From positions 2,781,509-2,845,508 of the forward strand of contig CP070761.1 of NCBI GenBank assembly GCA_020348985.1: a DNA stretch of 64,000 bases, written 5' to 3'. Positions 21,882-36,127 of the stretch are shown piece by piece. Position 1 is the first letter of the stretch; every line of letters starts with the position of its first letter. Under the pieces are notes generated by a model, which saw nothing but the letters and a program-made list of their open reading frames with translations, was not told the origin of the DNA and searched no databases. The DNA is from Candidatus Thorarchaeota archaeon. Lineage in GTDB: Archaea > Asgardarchaeota > Thorarchaeia > Thorarchaeales > Thorarchaeaceae. Made by a program: the position numbers and the translations under genes.

Positions 21882-22805
21882 TTGGTGGGCAATTTGTACG
21901 TAAAGATAAGGACGGATGGAGCCCTAGGAATAGGACGAGGAACCGAAGGCAAGGCTGAGATTGCAATTGGGTACGGCGAGGCACACATGATAGCGGCCGC
22001 CCTTGAGAAACTCGCTCAGACTGCACGCAGTTACAGGCAGACTTACAGAAAGACAACAGATGTTGGCGCTGGAAACAAAATCGATTTCGAACGTGCAGAT
22101 GACGGCAGGATTTCTCTAATCGGCGATGGTCAGCAGTACTACTGTACGGAAGAGGAGATTCGAGAGCTTGCTGAGAAGCTCAAACACTTGCCACCGGTGG
22201 AAGTGGCTCCTGCTTCTGACTACGTAGAGAAGGCAGCTCCTAAAGATGGATTCTGTGTCCTCGTCAAGAATGGCGGCAAGCAGATTAAACTAAAACTGCC
22301 TGATGCAGCACTCGTCAAGGCTGCTGTCAAATCAAGTCTTGATAGCAGGTTCTTTGAGGAGAATATCAAGATTGGTGACAGAACTCTGGCGATCAACAGG
22401 AGCAGCGATCTGAAATGGTCACTCAGTTCTGACAATGAGTCGGTCAGGTTCACTGCGTATGAGGTGGAGGCACTTCTGGCCGGACTTCACAACACAATCC
22501 TGGATGTGCTGATGGATGCTGTGAAGTCGAAGGGGTCTGACAAAATCGCAGACATCAGAGTAAAGAGCCAGATTCAACGAATCGAGCAAGAAGCGACAAA
22601 GGTACTTGCCGAACATAGTAAAGGTAAGGGGATCATCAAGCAGCTGACAAAGGTGGCCAATCAGATTCTCGGCACCGGCACAGACGCTGATGCAAGAGCA
22701 CATGATTTTATCCGGCTGTGCAACTACATCCATTCCAAGCTTGAGCCGGAGTTCCTTGAGCCACTATTTGAGATTCTCTCATTTACGCTGGTCACTGACA
22801 CCTAG
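21882..22805 (+). CDS. Hypothetical protein with four internal beta-beta-beta-alpha repeats and a helical C-terminus
   Basis: 307-aa ORF; repeats described in the findings. Confidence 0.65.
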   Translation: MVGNLYVKIRTDGALGIGRGTEGKAEIAIGYGEAHMIAAALEKLAQTARSYRQTYRKTTDVGAGNKIDFERADDGRISLIGDGQQYYCTEEEIRELAEKLKHLPPVEVAPASDYVEKAAPKDGFCVLVKNGGKQIKLKLPDAALVKAAVKSSLDSRFFEENIKIGDRTLAINRSSDLKWSLSSDNESVRFTAYEVEALLAGLHNTILDVLMDAVKSKGSDKIADIRVKSQIQRIEQEATKVLAEHSKGKGIIKQLTKVANQILGTGTDADARAHDFIRLCNYIHSKLEPEFLEPLFEILSFTLVTDT

Positions 22806-22833: not shown

Positions 22834-23736
22834 ATGAAACGGGCCAAGTCTAGATTCGTCGAAGAGGAGGCCGCTAGAACGAGCTACTTGGAGCAACTAA
22901 GACGCCGTTGGGGACTTAGAGCACCTCGACAGCTTCTCAAAATGTTCAGAAGACACCGAACTTCATTCGAGACCATTCTTGCGAATATCTTCGAGGTACT
23001 GGATTCGAATGGAGGGAAGTTTGCCTTTCCCACGGTGGCTGCCGTAGCGAAGATGCGTCCGGAACTTGTGCAAGAGATTGTGAAGGAGGGGTGTGAAGTC
23101 GCAAGCCATGGATACAATCACTTGAGATATCCCACGCTGACTCCAGAAGGCCGCCTTGAAGATCTCACTAGAAGTCTCAAGACCTTCAAACAGATGGGAA
23201 TAAAGATAGACGGATTCAGGGCGCCATATGACAACTACACCGATGACATGCCAGCAATGTTAGAGAAACAGTCTCTGGTTTGGGACGGCGGTTTTGGCTA
23301 CCGAAGCGAACATCGCGAGAAGGACTACTTCTTCAATCTGGAAATAGAGGGACGCACCTCAGGTGTGACCTATATTCCTCTCAGCATCTGGAGCGATGAC
23401 AAGATGATTGATGAGATGGGAATGAATCCCGAGGCGGTTTCAAAACGACTCAAACTCGAAGTTGAAAGGACCTCGAAGAATGAGGCGATGGTAATGTTTG
23501 ACCTTCATCCCATTAGGATTGGACAGCCGGAGTTTGTACACTGTTTGGATGATGTCCTACAACATGCCAATTCACTTGGAGGATGGAGTTCTACACCTGT
23601 AGAAGCTGTTAGATACTGGAACAAACACAGAACCTGGAAGTCTGATGCAACATTCTGTCTTCTTCTCACTGGTGACATTGATAACTGGGTTTTCTCAGAC
23701 TATCTAAGAAGAGTGCTTTGGAAAAGAATGAGCTGA
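22834..23736 (+). CDS. Polysaccharide deacetylase (NodB/CE4) family protein
   Basis: GCEVASHGYNH, GFRAPY, DLHP motifs. Start ATG 22834. Confidence 0.8.
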   Translation: MKRAKSRFVEEEAARTSYLEQLRRRWGLRAPRQLLKMFRRHRTSFETILANIFEVLDSNGGKFAFPTVAAVAKMRPELVQEIVKEGCEVASHGYNHLRYPTLTPEGRLEDLTRSLKTFKQMGIKIDGFRAPYDNYTDDMPAMLEKQSLVWDGGFGYRSEHREKDYFFNLEIEGRTSGVTYIPLSIWSDDKMIDEMGMNPEAVSKRLKLEVERTSKNEAMVMFDLHPIRIGQPEFVHCLDDVLQHANSLGGWSSTPVEAVRYWNKHRTWKSDATFCLLLTGDIDNWVFSDYLRRVLWKRMS

Positions 23737-24198
23737 ATGGAGACGAGAAAGATGGGGAAAATCATTGGGAGGTTTCTTAGGATACTAGCTTGGCTTGCTC
23801 CGTTCTATCAATTCCGTGTGTCTGTACACAGGAAGTGCGGAATCAAGATTGGTAAAGGCGTTTTCATTGGACCCAATGTGATGTTTGATAGTGAACACCC
23901 AGAGTACATCGAAATCCAAGACTGGGTGGCAATTGGACCTGGTGCGATAATCATGGCACACGGAGGTGCCAGTGCACTTCACCAGAAACTGAAACTCTAC
24001 GACCAGCCTCCAAAGAAGATCACAATTGAGAAAGGAGCGTGGATTGCAGCGGGGGCGATAATCCTCCCTGGCGTCACCGTGGGCCAGGGGGCCGTAGTAG
24101 CTGCAGGGGCCGTAGTCAGCAGAGATGTACAACCAATGACACTCGTTGTGGGCAACCCAGCGAGGGCTGTGCAAAAGCTAAGCCGGTCAGGCGACTAG
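23737..24198 (+). CDS. Left-handed beta-helix (hexapeptide) O-acyltransferase
   Basis: KIGKGVFIG, IMAH, WIAAGAIILPGVTVG.GAVVAAGAVVSRDV...VGNPAR. Confidence 0.88.
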   Translation: METRKMGKIIGRFLRILAWLAPFYQFRVSVHRKCGIKIGKGVFIGPNVMFDSEHPEYIEIQDWVAIGPGAIIMAHGGASALHQKLKLYDQPPKKITIEKGAWIAAGAIILPGVTVGQGAVVAAGAVVSRDVQPMTLVVGNPARAVQKLSRSGD

Positions 24199-24199
24199 G

Positions 24200-24433
24200 T
24201 CAGAGCTTGCTTGCAAGGACCTTCTTGAGATCACCGATAGTCCAGATATCAACGACCTCGTCATCGTCGAAGAAGATATTGAATCTGCTCTCGACCTCAC
24301 TGATGAGTAGCAGATGCGCCATAGAATCCCACGGTTCGTAGTCCTTCCTCTTCAGGTCATCCGATATCTCGTCTTTGTCAAGCAGAAGGACAAGTGAGAC
24401 AATCTCAGCAATACGATCGTCTATTTCGGTCAT
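24200..24433 (-). CDS. Acyl carrier protein
   Basis: 77-aa acidic protein with the WDSM phosphopantetheine site, E.RFNI.F and TIGD. Confidence 0.9.
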   Translation of the reverse strand: MTEIDDRIAEIVSLVLLLDKDEISDDLKRKDYEPWDSMAHLLLISEVESRFNIFFDDDEVVDIWTIGDLKKVLASKL

Positions 24434-24436
24434 TAT

Positions 24437-26272
24437 CTATTCCTCTCTAACCTCGATCCACTCGGGTATCTCGACTGTCTGCTCATCGAGATTGAGAATC
24501 CAAGATGTTACACCAGCCTCATCCGTTGTAGGCATTCCAAATCCATGACGTTCGTACAGATCCGAAGCAGGGGGGTTCTTCTTTGTGGGTATGTATTCAC
24601 CAATCACGCGAGAGGCTCCAGCGGCTCGCGCATCGGCGATTATTCTCGCCAAGAAAGCGGTCTCGACCGACCGTCCTATTACTCTGCAGCTCATCAAGAA
24701 CGAATCAATAATCCTGTCACCATTATTTGCTTTCACAATGGCGACGCCTACGACACCCTCGTCTCCGAATTTGTCGGTGACAGCCATGCTGTATACGGTT
24801 GAATCCTCCGAATCTCGGAACTGCTGTACTTGAGCGTCTGTATATCTTCTAGTCGTCAAATTGAACTGATTCGTCTTGCCTATCAATTGGACTACCCTAG
24901 GTGTGTCAAAGTCGCTGACTGGTTGTATCAGAACCTTGAGATCCAGAGTCTTCAAGAAATCATCAAGTGATCCTGCATCCCTCTCTAATTCAGCACGCTT
25001 TCGCTTCCCAACGTACATCTCTCCGCGCGCCATGTCTTCCTTAGTGAGAGACAATACATCAAACACGTCTAGGTTCTCTAAAGTCTGGCGATAGAGTCGG
25101 GGATTCTCAGGAAGGTCAACGACCAGAACCTCAGGTAATGTCTGTCTTACCTGCTCCCTTTCCACGGGACTGTCGTCAATGAAGACAATGCTGTCTAGAC
25201 CAATGTTTATCTCTTCAGCGAGTTCGATCAGATTCGTAGGTTTGTTCTGCCAGTTGATTCTTAGCGCAGCAAAATGCTCCTCACGGAGAACTTGGTAAGG
25301 ATGTTCTCTGAGCACCTTAATTGCGTCCTCGAAATTGTTCTTGCTGTTGACTGCGAGAATGATTCCGCGGTTGTAGAGACTGAGTAGCACTCTTTGGAAG
25401 TCCACATATTCAATACCAGGAGATGTGTTGCCTAGCTTGATACCTTCCATACCATCTTCGCCGATGATTCCTCCCCAGAGTGTGTTGTCAAGGTCAAGTA
25501 CGATGCACTTCTTGGCCAGACCTCGAATGGCCCGGATGTAGCGCAAGTATCCCTCAGCTACGACGGGTGTGAATTCCTCGCTGAATGGAATCGACCCTCT
25601 GTACATTGTATTCCAATTTACGACTCGGTCTTTGCCAAAGGCTGCAGCCGTAGAGTCCAGATCAACAACATGAACCCTATTTGAGGTACGAAACTCTTCA
25701 GCAAGAGCTCTGTTTGCGTCCGCGAAGAAGTCTCTGATTCCCAATTGCTGTTTGGAGTCGGCAACTCCTAGAGGAGAGAATACCGGGACGATGAAGTTGT
25801 TGACAAGTACCAAGGCAGACGTGCTCTTCTCCAGCTCTTTCGCTACTGCAGAAACAGCTTTGACGATCTCCTTTTGGGAAGACTTCCTTTCCTTGTCATT
25901 CATCCTTGGAAAAGATGATAGAAAGAGTTGATCAAGCAGAGACCATGCGTCAACAGCAAGCACGACAACATCCGGGTCCAGCTGACGAAAAGGTGACATT
26001 GGATCGAGAGCTTCCTGACGAAATGTGTTGAAGCCCCCAATGAATGTCTGAGGATGCAGGCCCTCCAGTCTAATCATAACATCAAGACAGGCTGCTACTG
26101 GTTCCAGTGTTGATGAGCCGATCACAGCCACACGTATCAACTGCGTTTCGTCTTCAGGAGGGGGAATCTCGAGGCGCTCGATCTTCTTGAAGACGCTCCA
26201 GTATCCAAGATAGGACGGGTTCTCACGAACGGTTTCGAGAAGGTCTGAGATAGCTTTATCGTTGTCACCCAT
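24437..26272 (-). CDS. fkbH: FkbH-like glyceryl-S-ACP synthase (HAD-IIIC + acyltransferase domain, SGNH-like N-domain)
   Basis: KCIVLDLDNTLWGG.IGEDG, SKN, INW..K, FIDDSP.ER, KTNQFNLTT.RY, DKFGD.G and LMSCRVIGR (thioester Cys). Confidence 0.93.
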   Translation of the reverse strand: MGDNDKAISDLLETVRENPSYLGYWSVFKKIERLEIPPPEDETQLIRVAVIGSSTLEPVAACLDVMIRLEGLHPQTFIGGFNTFRQEALDPMSPFRQLDPDVVVLAVDAWSLLDQLFLSSFPRMNDKERKSSQKEIVKAVSAVAKELEKSTSALVLVNNFIVPVFSPLGVADSKQQLGIRDFFADANRALAEEFRTSNRVHVVDLDSTAAAFGKDRVVNWNTMYRGSIPFSEEFTPVVAEGYLRYIRAIRGLAKKCIVLDLDNTLWGGIIGEDGMEGIKLGNTSPGIEYVDFQRVLLSLYNRGIILAVNSKNNFEDAIKVLREHPYQVLREEHFAALRINWQNKPTNLIELAEEINIGLDSIVFIDDSPVEREQVRQTLPEVLVVDLPENPRLYRQTLENLDVFDVLSLTKEDMARGEMYVGKRKRAELERDAGSLDDFLKTLDLKVLIQPVSDFDTPRVVQLIGKTNQFNLTTRRYTDAQVQQFRDSEDSTVYSMAVTDKFGDEGVVGVAIVKANNGDRIIDSFLMSCRVIGRSVETAFLARIIADARAAGASRVIGEYIPTKKNPPASDLYERHGFGMPTTDEAGVTSWILNLDEQTVEIPEWIEVREE

Positions 26273-26277
26273 ATGCC

Positions 26278-26730
26278 TCACTCTCTCTGCAAAAGCTCTA
26301 GGACAGCTCTGTCTATCTTCGCCTGAATATCACCCAGTTCTAGTGATCGAGCACGTGGATACGAAACCGCAACTGCAACTGCGTGGGTCGAAGAGAACGA
26401 TAAACTCACTCTAATCTGATTCCCGTCCGGACCGTCTAACAGCCTCACATTTGGGACTCCTTCAGTGCTCCTGATTATCTCGATACTCGCAATTCTGCCA
26501 ATGTTATTCAGTTCTAGTGCCTTTGCAACGGCTTCCTTTCCCGCAAACGTAACAGCTAGATGCGGTGCGGGATCCTGAAAGCTGAAACAGTACGAACTCT
26601 CAATTCTCGTGAAAACCCTCTGGACAAACGGGGAATCTTCGGTAAGACCTCTGAATCGCTCTATTTCAACGATGTCTGTTCCTATTTGTGCTTCTTCAAG
26701 CTCTGAGGTCTCGACCTCGTCACTACACAA
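26278..26730 (-). CDS. acpS: Holo-ACP synthase (4'-phosphopantetheinyl transferase, AcpS type)
   Basis: IGTDIVEIERF, RVFT..E, FAGKEAVAKAL; adjacent to fkbH and ACP. Confidence 0.88.
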   Translation of the reverse strand: MCSDEVETSELEEAQIGTDIVEIERFRGLTEDSPFVQRVFTRIESSYCFSFQDPAPHLAVTFAGKEAVAKALELNNIGRIASIEIIRSTEGVPNVRLLDGPDGNQIRVSLSFSSTHAVAVAVSYPRARSLELGDIQAKIDRAVLELLQRE

Positions 26731-26790
26731 CTTGACTCGACCGCCCTATCTTCTGGAGTCTCTTATAATGATATGGAAGAACCAATAGGA

Positions 26791-28230
26791 TCAAAGCTTA
26801 GAATCCTGCACAAGTTGAGCCGAGGACCACGGATAACGTTCTAGGATTGAGTCCAGAAGAGCCTGAACCTTCCTAACCTCTGAGGTGCCCTGATACGCCA
26901 GCAGGAGAACCAACCCGCCCCTCGTACGCTTGAATTTCTGGTACATTGTCTTGCTCGTACTTATCGTGTCACAGACCACCATCACATCAGCCTGCGGGAT
27001 GTCTAGGTCTCGCTCTCCAACTGGAGACATTACGAGGACTTCGACATCCTCGTTCTCCCGGAACTCCCTCAGAATCTCACCCTTGTCACGAGTCTGGCCT
27101 GTGATTGTGATTGTGGATAACCCAGCCCTCGTCAGTGTTTCCTCAATTTGAGCAACCATTTCGAGATACGAGGATAGCACGACCGTCTTTCGATATTGCT
27201 TGGCGATCTCAAGGACTCGAAGTGTCTTCAAAGATATCTCGGACAGACTCTTGTGTAGATGAGCTACGTTGAAATATCGTTTCAAATAGTCAGTATGGAA
27301 CATCCGAAGGAATCTATTGGCGGGCATGGCGTAGACGTACTTCCGGATGAGCAGCAGGCCCGAATAACGGCTCTTCAGTTCATCACTTATTGGTAGTCTT
27401 TCAATCATCAAATGTATTCGTCTAACATCTCCTTCCACTAGGTCAAGATTTCCGGATTCATCCAGTTCCTGCAAAATCTCTTGGCGTGTGTTTCGGATTA
27501 GCTCGTCCAAGACGACAAGAATCGACCGAATCTTCACATCAGTGACAAGGTTGATTGTGAGGAACGTAGGCTCAATGTGTTCTTCTACATCGGTGCCATA
27601 GAGATCTTCCATGGAGATTACTTCAGATTCCGGTATCTGTTCCCTCAATGTGCGAAGCTCGTTTCGTATTTCCAGCTGTTCTTCCGTAAACACCGCATGG
27701 TCGTCGCGTAGTGTTCCGCTCATACCGATAATCCACTTCCCTGCAAAGAAACCCAGAATGGTTCGCCATGGAAAGACGACCGTGGTTCTGCCTCCAGTTC
27801 TTTTGATTATAGTATCAACTTCGTTGATTAGTATCATATCGTAAGCTTCCAGAAGTGAGGGTTCTTTCTCCACCATCCTAGCCAATATCTGAGGAGTTGC
27901 TACAACAACCCTCTTCTCCCGTAATACAATGGGTCGGAGGGGAGACCTTACTCTGGATGATAGCTCTCCAAGGTCATCCTCGAGACCACCATACTCGCTC
28001 CTCAGATAGTCCATGGTTTCTGCGAGAGATGATGACGAGTGAACAACTATGATGATTCTCGTCTCAGGAAACCGCTCAGCAACAATCTGATGAGTGATGA
28101 ATCGTTTCCCCAGTCCGCAATCTAGCTCAAGCAATAGATTAGTGCCAGCCATCGAACTAATCCTGTCAAGGATGTAATTCTGGTATCCCCTTGGGGTGTA
28201 CTTTGTCTGGGCACTTGGCATTGCATTCAC
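26791..28230 (-). CDS. SF2 (Hef/ERCC4-like) helicase homologue with degenerate motifs
   Basis: PRGYQ Q-motif, CGLGKR, VATPQ, INEVD, MSGT, GERDLDIP.AD and QKFKRTRG. Confidence 0.7.
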   Translation of the reverse strand: MNAMPSAQTKYTPRGYQNYILDRISSMAGTNLLLELDCGLGKRFITHQIVAERFPETRIIIVVHSSSSLAETMDYLRSEYGGLEDDLGELSSRVRSPLRPIVLREKRVVVATPQILARMVEKEPSLLEAYDMILINEVDTIIKRTGGRTTVVFPWRTILGFFAGKWIIGMSGTLRDDHAVFTEEQLEIRNELRTLREQIPESEVISMEDLYGTDVEEHIEPTFLTINLVTDVKIRSILVVLDELIRNTRQEILQELDESGNLDLVEGDVRRIHLMIERLPISDELKSRYSGLLLIRKYVYAMPANRFLRMFHTDYLKRYFNVAHLHKSLSEISLKTLRVLEIAKQYRKTVVLSSYLEMVAQIEETLTRAGLSTITITGQTRDKGEILREFRENEDVEVLVMSPVGERDLDIPQADVMVVCDTISTSKTMYQKFKRTRGGLVLLLAYQGTSEVRKVQALLDSILERYPWSSAQLVQDSKL

Positions 28231-28321
28231 TTGAGATTCTTGGACTCAACCAACCGTGCACTTCATTCGGTCTTAAGAACCTAGAGTATAGGTGGTTCCA
28301 TAAGGAATCTGACAATCACTT

Positions 28322-29194
28322 CTAGTCGTCCTCATTGAGGGCGTCTACATGGTCCTCGACATTTCTGATTTGCACTGGGTCCGCCATTCCATGGAAGGTG
28401 ACCTCGGAAGTCGATTCGACGTCACCCCTTCTCAATGGAGTCGCCCTTCCGCTTACCCATATAGTGCCAGCCTGAATCTTGCGATTCTTTGGAACAACCG
28501 AGTTGGCCCCAATGACCGCGTTGTCTCCAATCTCTGCACCAGGCATGATAATCGCGTAACCCCCAACAGTGACATTGTCACCAATCTTGACCTTCTTGAG
28601 GTACAGCGAATTGCCTTCAAAGACATGAGCAGATATAATCGCGCCGTAGCCTGTATAGCAATTCCTTCCGATTTCGACTCGCTCTGGTGTGAACACGAGA
28701 CTATTGCCCAGTACTGTGTCCTTTCCAATCTTGGCCCCAAATTGAACCTGCCTTACCCTACCATCGATATACGGTGCAAAGAGCCAGATGAAGTGTCTTA
28801 ATAGAGCATAGTAGGTTTCGCGGAACTCGTAGATCAACCATTCATCAGAGTCCCGAGTATAGTAGCCTTCATCGACCATGGGTATCGCCAAACGGGACAA
28901 CTTGAACATTGCCACCAGGACAGTGAGAAACACAGTGTAGCAGACCAAGCCGATAGGTACGACTAGAATGAGGAACCAGAACTTCTCGTACACAAACTGC
29001 GGAAAAGCACCTGCAAATTGGATTTCGACGAAGGCCTGAATGTCTTGGAATGGCCATCCGAAACCATTAATCACGGGGTCGAGATTCTGAAGAGCATAGA
29101 AGAACATGAAGACCGGAATGATTGATGCTATCGCCATACTGATTAGAATCGATAGGGCCATGTAGATTCCGTATACTCTGGTCTTGACTTTCAG
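28322..29194 (-). CDS. Membrane-anchored left-handed beta-helix acyltransferase (paralogue 1)
   Basis: Two TM helices, then FGAKIGKD, ISAHVFEG, VKIGDNVTVG. Probable CTG start at 29194; first ATG at 29161. Confidence 0.8.
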   Translation of the reverse strand: MKVKTRVYGIYMALSILISMAIASIIPVFMFFYALQNLDPVINGFGWPFQDIQAFVEIQFAGAFPQFVYEKFWFLILVVPIGLVCYTVFLTVLVAMFKLSRLAIPMVDEGYYTRDSDEWLIYEFRETYYALLRHFIWLFAPYIDGRVRQVQFGAKIGKDTVLGNSLVFTPERVEIGRNCYTGYGAIISAHVFEGNSLYLKKVKIGDNVTVGGYAIIMPGAEIGDNAVIGANSVVPKNRKIQAGTIWVSGRATPLRRGDVESTSEVTFHGMADPVQIRNVEDHVDALNEDD

Positions 29195-29294
29195 TTTCCG
29201 GCCTCCTATGCCAATGATTTTCCGTCACCGGAATCAGTCGGAATAAGAACCTTCCCGTGCAGTGCTTCCGACGTTTTCTGAAGAATTCTTTGCT

Positions 29295-30149
29295 TTACGC
29301 TTCAGATGGTTCGGACGGACCATCTTCATCTTCAACTGATTTGGCCGGATTGGTAATCGCCTGAATGCTAACCGGGTCCATGTCTTTCCGGGGTATCGCG
29401 TTCCCGTTGATCCAAATGGAGTTGGGAGGAATAATGCGGTCCTTGCCAACCACTGTGTTGGCGGCAACAATTGAGTTGTCGCCTATTTCAGTCCCCGCGA
29501 AAACCATAGCGTGACCTCCCACGGTCACATTGTTGCCAATCTTCACGGTCTTGATATACAACCTGTCTCCATCATACATGTGCGGACATAGAAGTGAGCC
29601 ATACCCAACGATGCAATTCTTACCGATTTCCAACCTGTCAGGAGTCAAGACGTGCCCTCCGCCAATGATCGTTCCTCTTCCAATCTTGGCTCCGAAGTAG
29701 ATGTGTAGAAGTCGTGCATTCAGGAAGGCCGAAAAGAACCAGGTGAAGTGTGAGAAGATGGTATAGTACGATTGGTACATCTCGTAGAAGAGCCATTCAC
29801 CATTTGCTTTGTAATAGACTCCTTCGTCAAGATGGGGAATCGCCCGCCTGGAAAGGACAAACATGGCGCACAACACTGCAAGAAACATTCCATAGCAGAA
29901 CAGACCGAGGGGTACAATCAAGACAAAGAACCAGAACCTCTCAAGTGCAATCGCAGGAAGAACGCCTGCGAAAGCACCAGCAAAGAAACTCTGGATATTT
30001 GCGAATGGCCAACCGAAGCCTGTTAGAACTGAGTCTAGATTCTCAAATGCTGCCAGGAATACGAAAACCGCTGGCATCGCTGCGATGAAGATACTGAGGA
30101 GCATTGACAATGCCATGTAAAGGGCATATGCAATGTACTTAGGCTTCAG
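29295..30149 (-). CDS. Membrane-anchored left-handed beta-helix acyltransferase (paralogue 2)
   Basis: Clear tandem paralogue (GFGWPF..IQ.F, FWFF.LIVP.GL, FGAKIG, CPHMYDG). Probable CTG start at 30149; first ATG at 30116. Confidence 0.8.
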   Translation of the reverse strand: MKPKYIAYALYMALSMLLSIFIAAMPAVFVFLAAFENLDSVLTGFGWPFANIQSFFAGAFAGVLPAIALERFWFFVLIVPLGLFCYGMFLAVLCAMFVLSRRAIPHLDEGVYYKANGEWLFYEMYQSYYTIFSHFTWFFSAFLNARLLHIYFGAKIGRGTIIGGGHVLTPDRLEIGKNCIVGYGSLLCPHMYDGDRLYIKTVKIGNNVTVGGHAMVFAGTEIGDNSIVAANTVVGKDRIIPPNSIWINGNAIPRKDMDPVSIQAITNPAKSVEDEDGPSEPSEA

Positions 30150-30307
30150 CTTCAGACGCTCCTCTAGGGCTCTTAATCGTGGTCAATCGCCAGACTCCAT
30201 TTTTCAAGGTTTCCGGTACGGGCGGATACGATTTTGTCCTCGCAGAAACAGATATAGAGCCCACCAAATCGAGTCCGTAAGCCGCACTTACCCCTTTGGT
30301 GAAAGAT

Positions 30308-31543
30308 ATGACCTACGATCTCGCGATTGCCGGAACTGGCCCAGCAGGTTTGATGACCGCTGACCGAGCTTCAGAGAAGGGACTAAGGACAATCGTTCTC
30401 GAGAAACGGAACCACGTTACTGATTCCCTAATGGGCGAGCTAGTTACCGACAACGCTCTAAGACTGCTTCGCGTCAAACCTGATTCTGAATTTATCGGCA
30501 ACAAGTATAGTGAGATCGTGGGAGAGAGCCTAGACACTGGCGCAAACGTAGTAGTCGGTAAGGAGTTGCTAGGTAATGCATACCTTTTCGATGAAGACAA
30601 GTGTCAGGAGCTCATGAGAGACCGTGCCGAGGCAAATGGAGCAGAGTTCAAGTATGGAGCACGTGTCAGGTCGGTGATCAAAGAGAATGGCTCAGTTGTA
30701 GGGATGAAGTACAAAACCGACGATGAAGTTAGGGCCAAGCTCACTGTCGGTGCTGACGGTGCGTTTAGCAGGGTCTCAGAGACCGCAGGTTTTAGGTCAT
30801 TTGTCAAGAAATGGCTGCTGAGTTATGGATATCGATGGAAGCTGGAAAACTGCAAGGGCGTTGATCCTAACGTGGCTTACTTTTACGTTGGCAAAGATGT
30901 CGGATTGGGCTACCTATGGTTGTACCCGAGGAGTGAGTCCGAGGTCAATCTTGGAATAGGCCGTGTTCCATCTTCAAAGACAAATTGGGATGCGCTTCCG
31001 CCCATGCAGGAAGTCTTGAGGAAATACAAGAACAGCCATTCTGAGACAAAGGATGCGACGATTGCTTCGGTAAATGGTGGCGTCGTACCTTGCGCGGGAA
31101 TAATCCCCCGTTTTACTGATGCTGGCGTGGCTCTTTGCGGAAACAGTGCAGGCCAGGTCTCGTCGATCGTCGGCGGTGGCGTGACAACTTGCTTTCACGC
31201 AGGCACTCTTCTGGCCAAGCATGCCGCCAGAGCTATCGAAGAAGATGATGTTTCAAAGAAGAGCATTGAGAAGTATGAGAAGGAGTACAGAAAGACCAAG
31301 CTCGCCTACAACATAACCCAGACAGGCAAGGGGATGTGGGCAGTGTCCAAGTTTGCAATGTTCAACGATCCAATTGATGCAGCCGAGGTAGTGCTAGAGT
31401 CACTTGATGCAAGGACACTGAATGCTGCGATTCAGGGAAACATGAAAGTGAGTGACATCATGACTCTGCTGACCGACTTCTTGCCCATGGTGATGACAAT
31501 AGGAAAGGGTTACCTTCGGAGCATAGCAGTGAGTGGGCTCTGA
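30308..31543 (+). CDS. Geranylgeranyl reductase-family FAD oxidoreductase
   Basis: GTGPAG FAD motif, VGADG..SRV, GYLWLYP and GNSAGQV....GGG. Confidence 0.8.
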   Translation: MTYDLAIAGTGPAGLMTADRASEKGLRTIVLEKRNHVTDSLMGELVTDNALRLLRVKPDSEFIGNKYSEIVGESLDTGANVVVGKELLGNAYLFDEDKCQELMRDRAEANGAEFKYGARVRSVIKENGSVVGMKYKTDDEVRAKLTVGADGAFSRVSETAGFRSFVKKWLLSYGYRWKLENCKGVDPNVAYFYVGKDVGLGYLWLYPRSESEVNLGIGRVPSSKTNWDALPPMQEVLRKYKNSHSETKDATIASVNGGVVPCAGIIPRFTDAGVALCGNSAGQVSSIVGGGVTTCFHAGTLLAKHAARAIEEDDVSKKSIEKYEKEYRKTKLAYNITQTGKGMWAVSKFAMFNDPIDAAEVVLESLDARTLNAAIQGNMKVSDIMTLLTDFLPMVMTIGKGYLRSIAVSGL

Positions 31544-32040: not shown

Positions 32041-33132
32041 GTGGATGGCATGGCTAGAGCAAAATCGGTCAACAAGCAGAGAGTATACGGCGCCTTGGCA
32101 AAGCTAGGGTTGAAGATGGAAGATGAACAGGAGTCAAGATCAATCAGTCTTCTTCGGACAATACTAAGACTCCAGCAAAATGCAAGAAAGCCACTGATGT
32201 TCTCGGAAATCTATGGAGACTTCACAAGAGAGGGAGCTGGGGAAGGTCTCACAAAGGCATGGGTGCACCGCGTACTGAAGAAGCTTGTAGACGCCGGATT
32301 CGTTAGAGTCGAGAGCCCCACTGCTCACAGAAAGAGATACACCTCTGATGTCAATTCTATTATGAACGCTCTGGAGAAGCTTCGAAGTGAGAGAATTGAA
32401 GGGATTTCGAATCTCATGAAGGATCTTGAAGACGACTTGAGTGAAGTTGAGAAGATCGACCCAGGCGCTCTTGCTCAAGAACTTTTCCGGCAGGTCGCTG
32501 GAAGAGAACAACCAATTGGCTCTAGGTCCATCAAGGGCCTAGATGAATGGCACCGCGTGACGGATAGCACAATATTCCAGAAAGCGGAACCAGGAGACAT
32601 CATACGGACTTCTGTCATGAACATCGGCCCGTTCCTCCAAGGTGTGGAGAAAAGAATAGGAAGAGTCATTGCGGCGGGATCTCGAGGAGTGGATATTCGC
32701 TACATGATTCCACCGGCAATCTTCCGCCAGGACGATGAGATTAGAGAGAGGGTCCAACGTGAGTGGCTGGTGAACGCTCTAGGGCAATTTGCGGAGTTGG
32801 TGAACAAGGGAATGAGATTCGACGCCAGATTGAATGTAGGGATGGGCAGGTCTTTTGCATTTATCAGCCTGAATGATGAGTGTATAGCGTTGATGATCTC
32901 GGAGAACCCGATAATGGGAGCATGGATGACAAGAGACTTCAACCCCCATTTGATTGACAATGCATTAGCGGCATTTGACGAGACTTGGGAGAAATCGAGG
33001 TCTATTATTGGGTTGACACCATCTGACCTTGCGAAAATAGGTGCAAGTTCTGAAAGTTATCTTCATTCAATGATAGAGAAAGGTCAAGAGAGGGCAAAGA
33101 AGCGGCAAGGGGAAGACGAGGGTGAGAAGTAG
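32041..33132 (+). CDS. TrmB-like regulator (wHTH + coiled coil + PLD-like effector domain), paralogue 1
   Basis: WVHRVLKKLVDAGFV wHTH; C-terminal NPHLIDNA...FDETW. Confidence 0.6.
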   Translation: MDGMARAKSVNKQRVYGALAKLGLKMEDEQESRSISLLRTILRLQQNARKPLMFSEIYGDFTREGAGEGLTKAWVHRVLKKLVDAGFVRVESPTAHRKRYTSDVNSIMNALEKLRSERIEGISNLMKDLEDDLSEVEKIDPGALAQELFRQVAGREQPIGSRSIKGLDEWHRVTDSTIFQKAEPGDIIRTSVMNIGPFLQGVEKRIGRVIAAGSRGVDIRYMIPPAIFRQDDEIRERVQREWLVNALGQFAELVNKGMRFDARLNVGMGRSFAFISLNDECIALMISENPIMGAWMTRDFNPHLIDNALAAFDETWEKSRSIIGLTPSDLAKIGASSESYLHSMIEKGQERAKKRQGEDEGEK

Positions 33133-33134
33133 AT

Positions 33135-34073
33135 TTGAACAAGGAGGACTTCTCAAGAGCACTTGAGCTAGTAGGCATAAATCTACATGATGGACGTTCT
33201 CGCATTCTCCGAGCAATGCTCAGAGCTCAGCCGTCTCTGGGAACTCAAATCAGTTTCAAAGAGATGTATCAACAGCTCGGAAGGGAAGAAGGGGGAAGAG
33301 GGATGGCGAGACCCTTGGTGTATCGCTATCTCAAATCACTTGAAAAGGATGGACTAGTCGCCGTTGATAGAAGCGCGTATCGGCACACTTACTCTGTAGG
33401 TCTTGAAACTCTCACAAGTGCAATCGAGAACCTTCGCCTGCGCGCTTTGGAGAAATTAAGATTAGAGTTTGAAGCTGAGACGCAGAGACAAGAGGCAGTC
33501 GTTATGCCCTCAGCGGCCAGCATCGCTGCGGAGTTTATGATCTTCTTGGTCGGAAAACCAGAGAAACCTATACCAAAAACGGTGACTGGTCTTGAAGACA
33601 TCCAGAGACTAATCGATACCGAGATTTACGCGACTGCCAAGGAAGGCGATGTTATTCGTGCAACCATGGACTGGATAACACACGACAGAGACGTGGAGAA
33701 AGCCAGATACCAAGAAGCCCAAAGGCTGTTGGACATGGGTGTAGAGTACAGGACACTCATTAGACGACCATGGGCCCTTGATACGTCAATTGGCAAAATG
33801 CGTCGAAGATTCTATCAGGAGGCAAAGGACAGATACAAAGTCACCTATAGGTTCATGGACAAGAGAGAATGGGCCTACCAGCTTGTCGGAAAGAACCGTG
33901 ATGGCATTGTATTGGTGGTTTCAGAAGATCCTATTACAGCCATCTGGATACCGAGAAGCACAAACCCGATGATTGTTGATGATGCTTTGGACAGCTTTGA
34001 CCAGGAGTTTGAGGAGGCACAAGATATGTTGGATGGGAGTCTTGGAGAGGGAGAAACCGAGTATGGAGATTGA
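33135..34073 (+). CDS. TrmB-like regulator, paralogue 2
   Basis: LVYRYLKSLEKDGLV; C-terminal NPMIVDDA...FDQEF. Confidence 0.6.
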   Translation: MNKEDFSRALELVGINLHDGRSRILRAMLRAQPSLGTQISFKEMYQQLGREEGGRGMARPLVYRYLKSLEKDGLVAVDRSAYRHTYSVGLETLTSAIENLRLRALEKLRLEFEAETQRQEAVVMPSAASIAAEFMIFLVGKPEKPIPKTVTGLEDIQRLIDTEIYATAKEGDVIRATMDWITHDRDVEKARYQEAQRLLDMGVEYRTLIRRPWALDTSIGKMRRRFYQEAKDRYKVTYRFMDKREWAYQLVGKNRDGIVLVVSEDPITAIWIPRSTNPMIVDDALDSFDQEFEEAQDMLDGSLGEGETEYGD

Positions 34074-35028
34074 TAGAGAAGAATTGTGGCGTCATTTTGT
34101 CCCTGGATTGAGAACAAGAGAAACACAGGTCCTCCAGGCCATTCTTGAGATTCATCAAAAGCATGCAAGAGCAGCCACCTTTGAGGAGATTCGGGACGCC
34201 CTGACGGTTCTACTGGGCCGGAAACCAAGCAGAGTATGGGTGTATAAATGCATCAATGGAATCAGAGATGCCGGATTCCTTGAAGTGATACCTCATCCCA
34301 CATCGAATCGCTATCTGGCGAACGAAGAGATCATCTCACGAGCAATTCGACAGAAGAGGGAAGCAGTGGTCTCAGATTTCGAGGCGAGGAAGGCTGAGCT
34401 GCAGGAACAAATAGGATTCTTAGAGAATCTTGACTCGTACGCTCTCGCCGTCAGAACACTTAGAGCATTGACTGAAGGACGGGGAGACACTTCGGCCAAG
34501 ATTGTTGAGGGTATCAATAATGTGAGGCAGACCATTATTGATGAGATACTCGAAGTTGCCAAGCCAGGTGATGTGGTCAGAATACACCAAGACATCGAGC
34601 CACTGTCAACACTCAGAGGCCCAATGGGACCTGTTGAGATGAAACTTATTGAGATTGCCACAGAGGGAGTAGACGTTAGAGGGTTCATGACGGGAGGGCA
34701 ACTCAAGGAGAATGAATTCGGAGCACTAGCCAGCTTCTTCAGTAAGGCTGCGAGCAACTTGATAGAAGCTGCTGTAGGTGGGAATCTTCACTTTAGAATG
34801 AAACCGGACCTCAGTGCGACTTACAGGATTGTGGCACTTAACAGGGAAAGAATGATTCTAATCATGTCCGAGGGGGCACATCCCGATACGGTCATCTTCA
34901 TGACTCGAGAGTCAAACCCAAGACTAATAGATGATGCAGTGAATGTGTTCGACTCATTATGGGGAGAGAGTATAGACCTTCTAGCAAGACTTGGTGATAT
35001 GGTAGCCGACCTGAAAACGTCTCATTAG
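34063..35028 (+). CDS. TrmB-like regulator, paralogue 3
   Basis: GLRTRETQVL, WVYKCI..I.DAGFL; C-terminal NPRLIDDA...FDSLW. Start ATG 34063 overlaps the previous stop. Confidence 0.6.
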   Translation: MEIDREELWRHFVPGLRTRETQVLQAILEIHQKHARAATFEEIRDALTVLLGRKPSRVWVYKCINGIRDAGFLEVIPHPTSNRYLANEEIISRAIRQKREAVVSDFEARKAELQEQIGFLENLDSYALAVRTLRALTEGRGDTSAKIVEGINNVRQTIIDEILEVAKPGDVVRIHQDIEPLSTLRGPMGPVEMKLIEIATEGVDVRGFMTGGQLKENEFGALASFFSKAASNLIEAAVGGNLHFRMKPDLSATYRIVALNRERMILIMSEGAHPDTVIFMTRESNPRLIDDAVNVFDSLWGESIDLLARLGDMVADLKTSH

Positions 35029-35050
35029 CTCAAAATATCAACTGAAGCGA

Positions 35051-36127
35051 TTATGACTCTTGGGCATCATTCAGCCAAGTCCTATTTTCTGTCAGTGTCA
35101 GGAAGATATCGTCACAGACAGCCTGAAAGATCTCCCATGGACCGTACTCGCCACCTGCAGCATAGGGATGTCCGCCCCCTTTGAATAGCTTCGCAGCCAT
35201 ATCACATAGTACGGATTCGCTACCTCTGCGAAATCCGAGCATACCACCCTGTGTCAGGGTAATCATAAGATCAGCACGAGCTAGTTGCCGCCCTTCTACA
35301 GCCAGGTTGGTTTCTTCAGCCATGAACGTACCAATGTCAGTAGTGGTGATGCCCAGCGGTATTTGCACAATCCTGATGAGTCGTTCATGGACCTTCTGGT
35401 CGCAATGGTCTTTGAGAGCTCGCTTCATTTTCTTGAGCCGCTCTTTCCTGTAATTCCTTACCTGTTTTTCAAGCAGGTCATCTTTCAGTCGTTTTGCATC
35501 ATCGTCCCAGACTTCTTCGAGCCCCCCGTTAGCGATAGATGTGAGTAGTGGGCGGAGCGCTTCCGTCATATCGTCTTTTGATGCTATGGCCGCGAATCTT
35601 AGAACAGCTAGGGCATCAGCAAGCGCAGTAGCGGCTTCGACCTCACGGAGATTAAAGTCTGTGTCGTGAGCGATACGAGCAAGCTCTGCGCACACCTCAT
35701 CTCTCGGCATCAGCGTCTTGAACGCGATTTCAGCTGCGCAGAAGTCAGGATTCACTCTGAGAATCGGCTTGTTAGGAAGGGAGACAATCGCTTTCATAGA
35801 CCGCGTAGCCCAATTATGATGGTCCAGCCATACAATCTTGCAGCCCTGGGAGATGGCTCTTTTCAAACCTGAAGTGACCTGAGGAAGGATATTCTCATCC
35901 AGTCCCAAGTCAGTGATGACTATGATCGAATTCTTTCGGCTACCGATCTTCTTGAAGACCACGTCCATTGTGCCATAGTCGGTTAGGATCACATCGAAGT
36001 CCATACCTTTGCTCTCTGCGTACCTAGCAACTATCGCTGAGGCACAGAGACCATCGACGTCCTTTTCATGAGATACGGAAAGAATCGAACTGATCTTGGC
36101 GGTCTTGGGTTGGCCGCTTTCTGTCAT
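35051..36127 (-). CDS. DHH/DHHA1 family phosphoesterase
   Basis: H..DVDG, ITDLG, WLDHH and GGGHPYAAG motifs. Confidence 0.88.
   Translation of the reverse strand: MTESGQPKTAKISSILSVSHEKDVDGLCASAIVARYAESKGMDFDVILTDYGTMDVVFKKIGSRKNSIIVITDLGLDENILPQVTSGLKRAISQGCKIVWLDHHNWATRSMKAIVSLPNKPILRVNPDFCAAEIAFKTLMPRDEVCAELARIAHDTDFNLREVEAATALADALAVLRFAAIASKDDMTEALRPLLTSIANGGLEEVWDDDAKRLKDDLLEKQVRNYRKERLKKMKRALKDHCDQKVHERLIRIVQIPLGITTTDIGTFMAEETNLAVEGRQLARADLMITLTQGGMLGFRRGSESVLCDMAAKLFKGGGHPYAAGGEYGPWEIFQAVCDDIFLTLTENRTWLNDAQES

Follow-up and report, generated by a model that had tools for sequence, protein, structure and literature searches.

Loading of the FkbH/OzmB type is part of the FK520 and oxazolomycin pathways. 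De-N-acetylation of N-acetylglucosamine (GlcNAc) followed by N-acylation dependent on an acyl carrier protein (ACP) is the logic of the NodB/NodA/NodF and LpxC/LpxD systems, where NodB is a CE4 enzyme and LpxD a left-handed beta-helix (LbH) protein; to our knowledge, no described pair joins CE4 with LbH. ArnD, a cytoplasmic deacylase of the CE4 fold, acts on a polyprenyl-phosphate amino sugar, from which it removes formyl, leaving a free amine, and LbH N-hydroxybutyryltransferases of the AntD type (PDB 3vbl) transfer a hydroxy-acyl group onto a sugar amine. The window analysed here, 64,000 nucleotides of contig CP070761.1 of a Candidatus Thorarchaeota archaeon (assembly GCA_020348985.1), contains a compact cassette of five genes encoding a CE4 deacetylase, a small soluble LbH acyltransferase, an ACP, an FkbH protein and an AcpS-type phosphopantetheinyl transferase (PPTase). 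On balance, this module probably de-N-acetylates an amino sugar of an N-glycan and then N-glyceroylates it from glyceryl-ACP.

FkbH-type proteins load glyceryl from 1,3-bisphosphoglycerate on a carrier protein (PMC8949500). N-glyceroyl 2,3-diaminoglucuronamide is carried by the S-layer N-glycan of Methanoculleus marisnigri (Kelly 2022, as reviewed in PMC11407970); it matches the predicted product in type and sits on an archaeal AglB glycan, but the review gives no biosynthetic genes. The flagellin of Campylobacter jejuni bears di-O-methylglyceroyl-pseudaminic acid, also a glyceroyl amide on a protein-linked glycan, and the authors of the Cj1295 work propose acetamido cleavage followed by glyceroyl substitution; Cj1295, however, is an aminopeptidase-like deacylase and not a CE4 enzyme, the sugar is a nonulosonic acid, O-linked and bacterial, and the paper names no FkbH or ACP (PMC3068675). 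Glyceroyl groups are also present on Bacteroidota glycans, with the stage of installation unknown (PMC12871550). The product type, an N-glyceroyl sugar, is therefore already known, and the original prediction, made from the letters of the window, went too far in speaking of an undescribed modification, since such an amino sugar occurs in an archaeal N-glycan (PMC11407970). The gene route is another matter: no paper describing the cassette or the route was found in a literature search whose coverage mostly excluded subscription journals.

Compared with the loading modules of polyketide synthases (PKS) and non-ribosomal peptide synthetases (NRPS), the cassette has the same loader (HAD-IIIC and GNAT-like, DxD and SCR motifs), a carrier protein of its own and a PPTase, but it has no PKS/NRPS partner, its FkbH is a long form with an FkbH_N domain, a deacetylase and an LbH protein are coupled to it, and it is archaeal and vertically inherited. 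Its logic resembles that of NodB/NodA or LpxC/LpxD; these differ in using fatty acyl-ACP from type II fatty acid synthase, whereas the cassette CE4 appears permuted and the LbH protein is of the size of galactoside and maltose acetyltransferases (GAT/MAT). The AntD-type enzymes serve as a model for a variant of the cassette with a dehydrogenase (see below), with only 19% identity to the LbH protein, and differ in their CoA donor and in an amine derived from an aminotransferase. The five genes are as follows:

22834–23736, forward strand: CE4/NodB deacetylase of the PuuE/HP0310 subfamily, predicted to be circularly permuted (PF01522)
23737–24198, forward strand: small soluble LbH acyltransferase (PF00132), probable start at ATG 23752
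24200–24433, reverse strand: stand-alone ACP, Ser37 in a WDS motif (PF00550, NCBIfam ACP models)
24437–26272, reverse strand: long-form FkbH of 611 aa, FkbH_N, HAD-IIIC and GNAT-like domains (TIGR01686, PF21211)
26278–26730, reverse strand: AcpS-type PPTase (PF01648, TIGR00556)

The cassette thus spans 22834–26730. Spacing is tight, with 5 bases between acpS and fkbH and 3 between fkbH and acp, and the CE4 and LbH genes are convergent with acp, leaving a 1-bp gap between the acp end and the LbH stop. Every gene named in the original prediction has the position and orientation given there, and the acpS, fkbH and acp motifs are intact. Two alignments that contained a junk row were left out of the conclusions. 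AcpS, the single PPTase match in the host genome (G000), scores 50.6 bits with PF01648 (cut-off 25) and 54.6 bits with TIGR00556 (cut-off 45.35) and has GxD at residues 17–19 and KEA at residues 65–67. FkbH scores 314.5 bits with TIGR01686 (curated cut-off 146.65), with the HAD motif DLDNT at 260 and the acyl-accepting Cys529 within SCR; DLD, DD, TNQFN and SCRVIGR are kept across 74 homologues. The ACP, an acidic protein of ~80 aa (mean net charge about −8), scores 18.8 bits with PF00550, slightly below the 20.8 cut-off; its top NCBIfam matches are ACP models, orthologues in G144 and G152 are above the PF00550 cut-off, and Ser37 is retained in 30 of 31 aligned homologues. Judging from their residues, all three proteins look catalytically intact. 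In G017, Ala replaces the phosphopantetheine Ser of the ACP (WDAM; L031:8425-8658), in a genome that also has no membrane LbH gene; either a decaying cassette or an assembly error could account for this.

The host is a Thorarchaeota archaeon, in agreement with the Asgard origin supposed in the original prediction, and neither a bacterium nor a chimera: FkbH orthologues 66–71% identical occur in Ca. Thorarchaeota, and chimerism is ruled out by the single contig, uniform GC content and synteny at 22 loci. The window has no N and lies within one contig of a scaffolded assembly (86% complete) with 131 artificial joins; per-gene GC content is 47–52%, the same as in the flanks. FkbH orthologues 61–75% identical were found in 16 of 36 family genomes, and FkbH-bearing Thorarchaeia keep a fixed order: a hypothetical gene, CE4, LbH, ACP, FkbH, AcpS, a helicase-like gene, membrane LbH and a geranylgeranyl-reductase-family (GGR) gene. 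Cassette-free sites were read by anchoring on the helicase-like gene, and only loci spanning both boundaries were counted. Of the 48 Thorarchaeia loci so counted, 22 carry the complete set, 25 lack it altogether and one retains a CE4 stub. In this last case (L057:6309-7254, genome G022), only a VOC gene and the 134-aa stub lie between the boundary genes, a deletion caught midway. The membrane LbH and GGR genes are in place at all 25 cassette-free loci, and membrane LbH is about as conserved there as at cassette-bearing loci (mean identity 57% vs 59%); conversely, no membrane LbH gene was found at the locus or genome-wide in the cassette-bearing genomes G007, G016 and G017 (93–95% complete). 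The all-or-none pattern, together with this decoupling, defines the unit as CE4, soluble LbH, ACP, FkbH and AcpS; the membrane LbH, GGR and helicase-like genes are backbone neighbours and not part of the cassette. The co-conservation expected by the original prediction therefore holds for these five genes and fails for membrane LbH and GGR. Genera with and without the cassette are interleaved in the backbone tree, most of whose genus groups reappear in the FkbH tree; this rules out recent transfer into the host genome and fits inheritance with several losses (FastTree trees, midpoint root; the number of losses is approximate).

The cassette CE4 has nine residues invariant among 71 homologues (H92, H96, R129, Y132, D188, D189, H225, D281 and D283), among which D281/D283, H92, H96 and H225 supply the Asp-His-His metal triad and the catalytic Asp and His, an assignment made from the alignment and not from model geometry. 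Motif 1 is not on the first N-terminal strand; an invariant TGDxD is located at the C-terminus, with a Trp eleven residues before it. In the predicted structure (pLDDT 93.7), helices are the sole secondary structure ahead of residue 60, and a C-terminal strand spans 274–279. The top folds are 3rxz (Z 23.8, root-mean-square deviation (rmsd) 3.2 Å, 232 residues aligned) and 3qbu (Z 22.7); ArnD (8t0j) has a similar fold (Z 19.2, rmsd 2.8 Å over 207 residues, 13% identity) with the canonical strand order, and the matches to PuuE/HP0310-type structures and ArnD cover only residues ~28–267. When permuted, the CE4 profile aligns end to end (3–271) with a canonical CE4 of the host genome, compared with 52–273 in native order, for a gain of only about 1 bit. 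Used alone, a profile of the C-terminal 38 residues matched nothing in the PDB and missed the canonical CE4, so the case for permutation is made by the alignment of the whole permuted profile together with the invariant motif and the model, which indicate that the cassette CE4 is a circular permutation of the CE4/NodB barrel. No signal peptide or transmembrane segment was found in CE4, nor a membrane segment in the soluble LbH protein; both have strongly amphipathic N-terminal helices, basic in CE4. In the plasmids searched, only distant canonical CE4s were found.

The donor genes are exchanged in nature. Relatives at one aglB–topA site carry aglB, VOC, CE4, LbH, ACP, FkbH, AcpS and topA; four loci at this site have aglB, CE4, a 3-hydroxyacyl-CoA dehydrogenase gene, LbH and topA and no FkbH, ACP or AcpS, and CE4, dehydrogenase and LbH genes also occur together at a fifth, short locus. 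Two loci have a GNAT gene instead of FkbH, ACP and AcpS. The swap-locus CE4s nest within FkbH-type CE4 clades, and the LbH proteins belong to different subfamilies. As the LbH subfamily changes with the donor genes while CE4 stays, LbH appears to track the donor and the CE4 substrate appears constant; from this we infer an exchangeable donor arm, with the small LbH protein as the enzyme that recognises the donor. Permuted CE4 and natural donor swaps would together make up a modular acyl-exchange system. A complex prediction for the LbH trimer with ACP scored 0.75, but a control reached 0.60, and the result counts neither for nor against an interaction. The soluble LbH protein is proposed to be an acyl-ACP-dependent transferase. 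The idea that an LbH enzyme unloads glyceryl-ACP onto an envelope molecule is supported in so far as an LbH enzyme is the likeliest unloader, with the small soluble protein and not the membrane-anchored ones proposed for that role.

The module also occurs outside Thorarchaeia. CE4 homologues 44–50% identical occur in Hodarchaeales, Kariarchaeaceae and Bathyarchaeota; of 400 Asgard genomes, 66 have FkbH and 61 have permuted CE4, with wide overlap between the two sets and most mismatches due to contig breaks, whereas the largest Asgard family (135 genomes) yielded neither. The five genes stay grouped, in reordered form, in Heimdall-group Asgard, Bathyarchaeia and Nitrososphaerota-like loci, and the same grouping was seen in 80 metagenome loci. 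A GTDB-wide scan with a lone protein returned close relatives only, and the range outside Asgard is given by metagenome contigs and their source names. One clade (SH 0.998) unites the cassette FkbH proteins of Thorarchaeia, of the Heimdall group and of Bathyarchaeia-like loci; in Nitrososphaerota-like loci, CE4 and LbH are the same but FkbH comes from a different branch.

The recurrent neighbour in these lineages is aglB. In the first five Hodarchaeales, Kariarchaeaceae and Bathyarchaeota loci opened, the cassette genes adjoin aglB or are at most 2 kb away, and the second-best FkbH representative at 50% clustering, reached without CE4, is also beside or within 2 kb of aglB. Thirteen Heimdall-group loci have the five genes rearranged, in many cases accompanied by a VOC/epimerase-like gene, and aglB is one gene off in 8. 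Clustering CE4 at 75% identity gives 38 clusters outside Thorarchaeia, of which 17, or 17 of the 20 with adequate flanks, have aglB no more than 5 kb away; many of the aglB-negative clusters are short contigs. The contexts on the aglB side vary (eIF2-alpha, Cdc6-PolD, a ribosomal operon, SHMT). In one genome aglB is beside a lone CE4, and in another lineage an AglH-like GT4 and a UDP-sugar dehydrogenase flank the cassette. Among the products once considered, a lipid, a glycan or a polyester, the joint inheritance with CE4 and the recurrence of aglB favour the glycan; the lipid and the polyester are not favoured.

The proposed route would start with AcpS and CoA converting apo-ACP to holo-ACP, as expected from the family and the residues present. 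FkbH, whose residues are also present, would then dephosphorylate 1,3-bisphosphoglycerate, the presumed substrate by analogy with its family (PMC8949500), and load glyceryl on ACP. In the cytoplasm, the metal-dependent permuted CE4, to judge from its fold and residues, would strip N-acetyl from a HexNAc-type residue, perhaps of a nucleotide sugar or, as the amphipathic N-terminal helices of CE4 and LbH hint, of a dolichol-linked precursor. The soluble LbH trimer would move glyceryl from ACP onto the amine so exposed, yielding an N-glyceroyl sugar heavier by 46.005 Da than the N-acetyl form, and AglB, as suggested by the gene neighbourhood outside Thorarchaeia, would transfer the glycan to protein. 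The deacetylase is strictly coupled to the transferase, and the simplest explanation is that one makes the acceptor of the other. Optional cassette genes of relatives, encoding a MaoC dehydratase, SAM methyltransferases and VOC/methylmalonyl-CoA-epimerase-like proteins (L089:6866-7300; L092:4674-5399; L209:5254-7471; L071:3812-4273), would edit the acyl group and suggest dehydrated, O-methylated or epimerised glyceroyl variants. Five small soluble proteins thereby become a candidate source of N-glyceroyl sugars, and a specific mass signature is predicted in Asgard and Bathyarchaeia glycoproteomes, in which unexplained sugar masses are common (PMC11284389, PMC12153357).

Several points weigh against N-glyceroylation of an N-glycan. 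No glycan is known for any of the cassette-carrying organisms considered. In Thorarchaeia the cassette is not beside aglB, which is on a different contig in the host assembly and 1.09 Mb away on the G021 record, so the N-glycan link there is carried over by orthology; an apparent distance of 63 kb in the host is meaningless, given the 100-N scaffold joins between. Three Heimdall-group clusters have no aglB nearby either. When clustering is done at 65% identity, aglB linkage falls to 6 of 13, the CE4 clusters are kin and their counts not a statistical test, and the class with adequate flanks favours positives. PGK and aglH were not found in the 86%-complete host assembly; both are present in relatives searched, and PGK in 4 of 5 cassette genomes. 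The donor swaps were seen on contigs from metagenomes, so the absence of FkbH applies to the locus only. Finally, the soluble LbH protein is nearer to O-acetyltransferases than to N-acyltransferases, both by sequence and by fold.

A broader version of the same proposal is possible rather than probable: ACP-dependent remodelling may take place at the membrane, on a dolichol-linked GlcNAc core or a GlcNAc-inositol lipid, as an ancient system shared by Thorarchaeia, the Heimdall group including Hodarchaeales, and Bathyarchaeia, with an exchangeable donor arm (glyceryl-ACP, hydroxyacyl-CoA or GNAT-derived) on a constant core of permuted CE4 and LbH. If true, N-glycosylation in the archaea closest to eukaryotes would have a branch that depends on a carrier protein.

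Among the alternatives, the one that survives best, and which we still think unlikely, retains the five genes and the glycan target but has LbH O-glyceroylate a sugar hydroxyl, with CE4 separately freeing an amine or removing an ester. The soluble LbH protein is a short LbH with a loop His and Trp, as in GAT/MAT-type O-acyltransferases, and its nearest solved relatives by profile and fold are of that type (83 bits; top structures 3ftt, 3nz2 and 3srt), ahead of the sugar N-acyltransferases WxcM-like/QdtC/WlbB (61–67 bits); every NCBIfam equivalog model scores far under its cut-off. His70 and Trp97, corresponding to the His/Trp pair used by galactoside and maltose O-acetyltransferases, are invariant in 31 homologues, and the CE4 family includes O-deacetylases such as acetylxylan esterases. 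However, the LbH N-acyltransferases WlbB, FdtD and AntD have the same fold, the strict coupling of deacetylase and transferase is most simply understood if one makes the acceptor of the other, and the published glyceroyl groups considered (PMC11407970, PMC3068675) are amides.

It is less likely again that the acceptor is, at least in Thorarchaeia, some other amino-sugar conjugate: a GPI-like glucosaminyl-inositol ether lipid, a free surface polysaccharide or a small solute. The aglB-free loci of Thorarchaeia and of the three Heimdall-group clusters would agree with this, as would the amphipathic N-termini of CE4 and LbH and the place of ArnD, with its polyprenyl-linked substrate, among the top folds of CE4. 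Yet the adjacency to aglB recurs in several contexts, the Thorarchaeia FkbH is in one clade with aglB-linked copies, and at the Thorarchaeia locus neither a glycosyltransferase nor an exporter is inherited along with the cassette.

The genes around the cassette bear on a third alternative, close to that of the original prediction:

21882–22805, forward strand: conserved hypothetical protein, 307 aa, no Pfam/NCBIfam match; left cassette boundary, backbone
26791–28230, reverse strand: SF2 helicase-like protein, 479 aa (PF00271/PF04851); right cassette boundary, backbone
28322–29161, reverse strand: membrane-anchored LbH acyltransferase, copy 1, two N-terminal hydrophobic segments; backbone
29295–30116, reverse strand: membrane-anchored LbH acyltransferase, copy 2, two N-terminal hydrophobic segments; backbone
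30296–31543, forward strand: GGR-family flavoprotein (TIGR02032 133 bits, under cut-off); backbone

Here a membrane LbH enzyme would unload glyceryl-ACP onto an ether lipid or polymerise a Pls-like polyester, with GGR acting on the same lipid. The genes are 1.6 kb upstream on the same strand, the best NCBIfam models are the Pls C-terminal domain and heptaprenylglyceryl-phosphate O-acetyltransferase (56–60 bits, far under the cut-offs of 300–423), and distant, unlinked homologues occur in three cassette-bearing Heimdall-group genomes. This is nevertheless improbable. A membrane LbH orthologue is present in 52 of 60 family genomes, cassette-free ones included, and its presence at every cassette-free locus and absence from three cassette-bearing genomes count against the claim that it unloads ACP; it never adjoins the cassette outside Thorarchaeia, and the helicase-like gene, passed over in the original prediction, intervenes before acpS. 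GGR, once read as pointing to a lipid or polyester, is one of nine paralogues, stays where the cassette is absent and is not beside it outside Thorarchaeia. A Pls/PosA membrane polymerase was rejected on the same decoupling and on its TIGR02353 scores (56–59 vs 423 bits). Membrane LbH and the divergent GGR gene form a conserved Thorarchaeia pair independent of the cassette, which, from the sequence matches, may be an acetyl-CoA ether-lipid acetyltransferase system. What the present analysis contributes is the decoupling of this pair, the donor swaps accompanied by a corresponding change of LbH, and the permutation test.

About equally improbable is a scheme in which the N-terminal SGNH-like domain of FkbH is the transferase and LbH an ordinary acetyl-CoA enzyme. 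A Ser-x-Thr motif near the start of the domain is conserved, but no conserved His was found in the domain across the 74 sequences, the solved relative BF1531 (PDB 3slr) has Thr at the Ser position, and the LbH subfamily switches with the donor genes.

That the ACP feeds fatty-acid or polyketide synthesis, where ACP and AcpS are a canonical pair and for which other Asgard families carry type I megasynthases, is hardly credible: no full-length ketosynthase was found in five cassette genomes, the host included, only short, partial thiolase-type PF00109 matches, and the single-copy AcpS is lost together with the cassette across Thorarchaeia. The original prediction noted that the window has no PKS, ketosynthase or MBOAT gene; in the whole 86%-complete genome, no MBOAT and no full-length ketosynthase was found. 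A methoxymalonyl-/hydroxymalonyl-ACP or tetronate cassette was rejected, with no linked dehydrogenases, methyltransferase, FabH-like or PKS gene at 22 complete Thorarchaeia loci, as was decoration of the Dlt/AlgI type by an MBOAT, with no PF03062 match in five cassette genomes (86–99% complete).

Almost all archaea are described as lacking ACP and ACP synthase (bioRxiv 10.1101/2024.07.05.601840). A complete AcpS–ACP pair is inherited in about half of Thorarchaeia genomes and in many Heimdall-group and Bathyarchaeia genomes; it apparently serves glycan tailoring, not fatty acids, and thus says nothing direct about the lipid divide. Stand-alone ACP matches in archaeal genomes with this type of cassette should not be read as fatty acid synthesis. 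The type I synthases, encoded in many other Asgard families, are proteins of 3,200–3,800 aa (KS, AT, ACP repeats, KR, DH and C-terminal PPTase; L232:3088-14475, L236:2709-12554, L233-L235) which directly follow an acyl-CoA carboxylase subunit gene and were not found in the host genome.

The 307-aa hypothetical protein is present at every Thorarchaeia locus read and directly adjoins the helicase-like gene at cassette-free loci. Whether or not they carry the cassette, 56 of 60 other family genomes have a match to the helicase-like protein at orthologue level (E < 1e-100). This protein is 59–74% identical in almost all Thorarchaeia; its degenerate Walker A (GLGKR) and Walker B (INEVD) motifs suggest that it is possibly ATPase-impaired. 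The two membrane LbH genes form a tandem duplicate pair (47% identical), and both copies deviate from the family motif SGHVYEG; most relatives have a single copy, and another tandem pair was seen only in G028. After GGR, at 32041–36127 of the window, three tandem paralogous winged-helix TrmB-like regulators (363, 312 and 351 aa), present in most Thorarchaeia, are followed by a DHH-type protein.

A second, divergent FkbH type (28–31% identity) occurs in several Asgard families (L039, L040, L143-L145), where it follows the gene of a membrane protein that has a deacetylase-like RHDVD motif; no ACP was detected at the locus. An unrelated FkbH-like gene, without the CE4/LbH cassette, is located within a nonulosonic-acid cluster (L142, G211:C1:5079000-5098999) of a 6.0-Mb Asgard genome.

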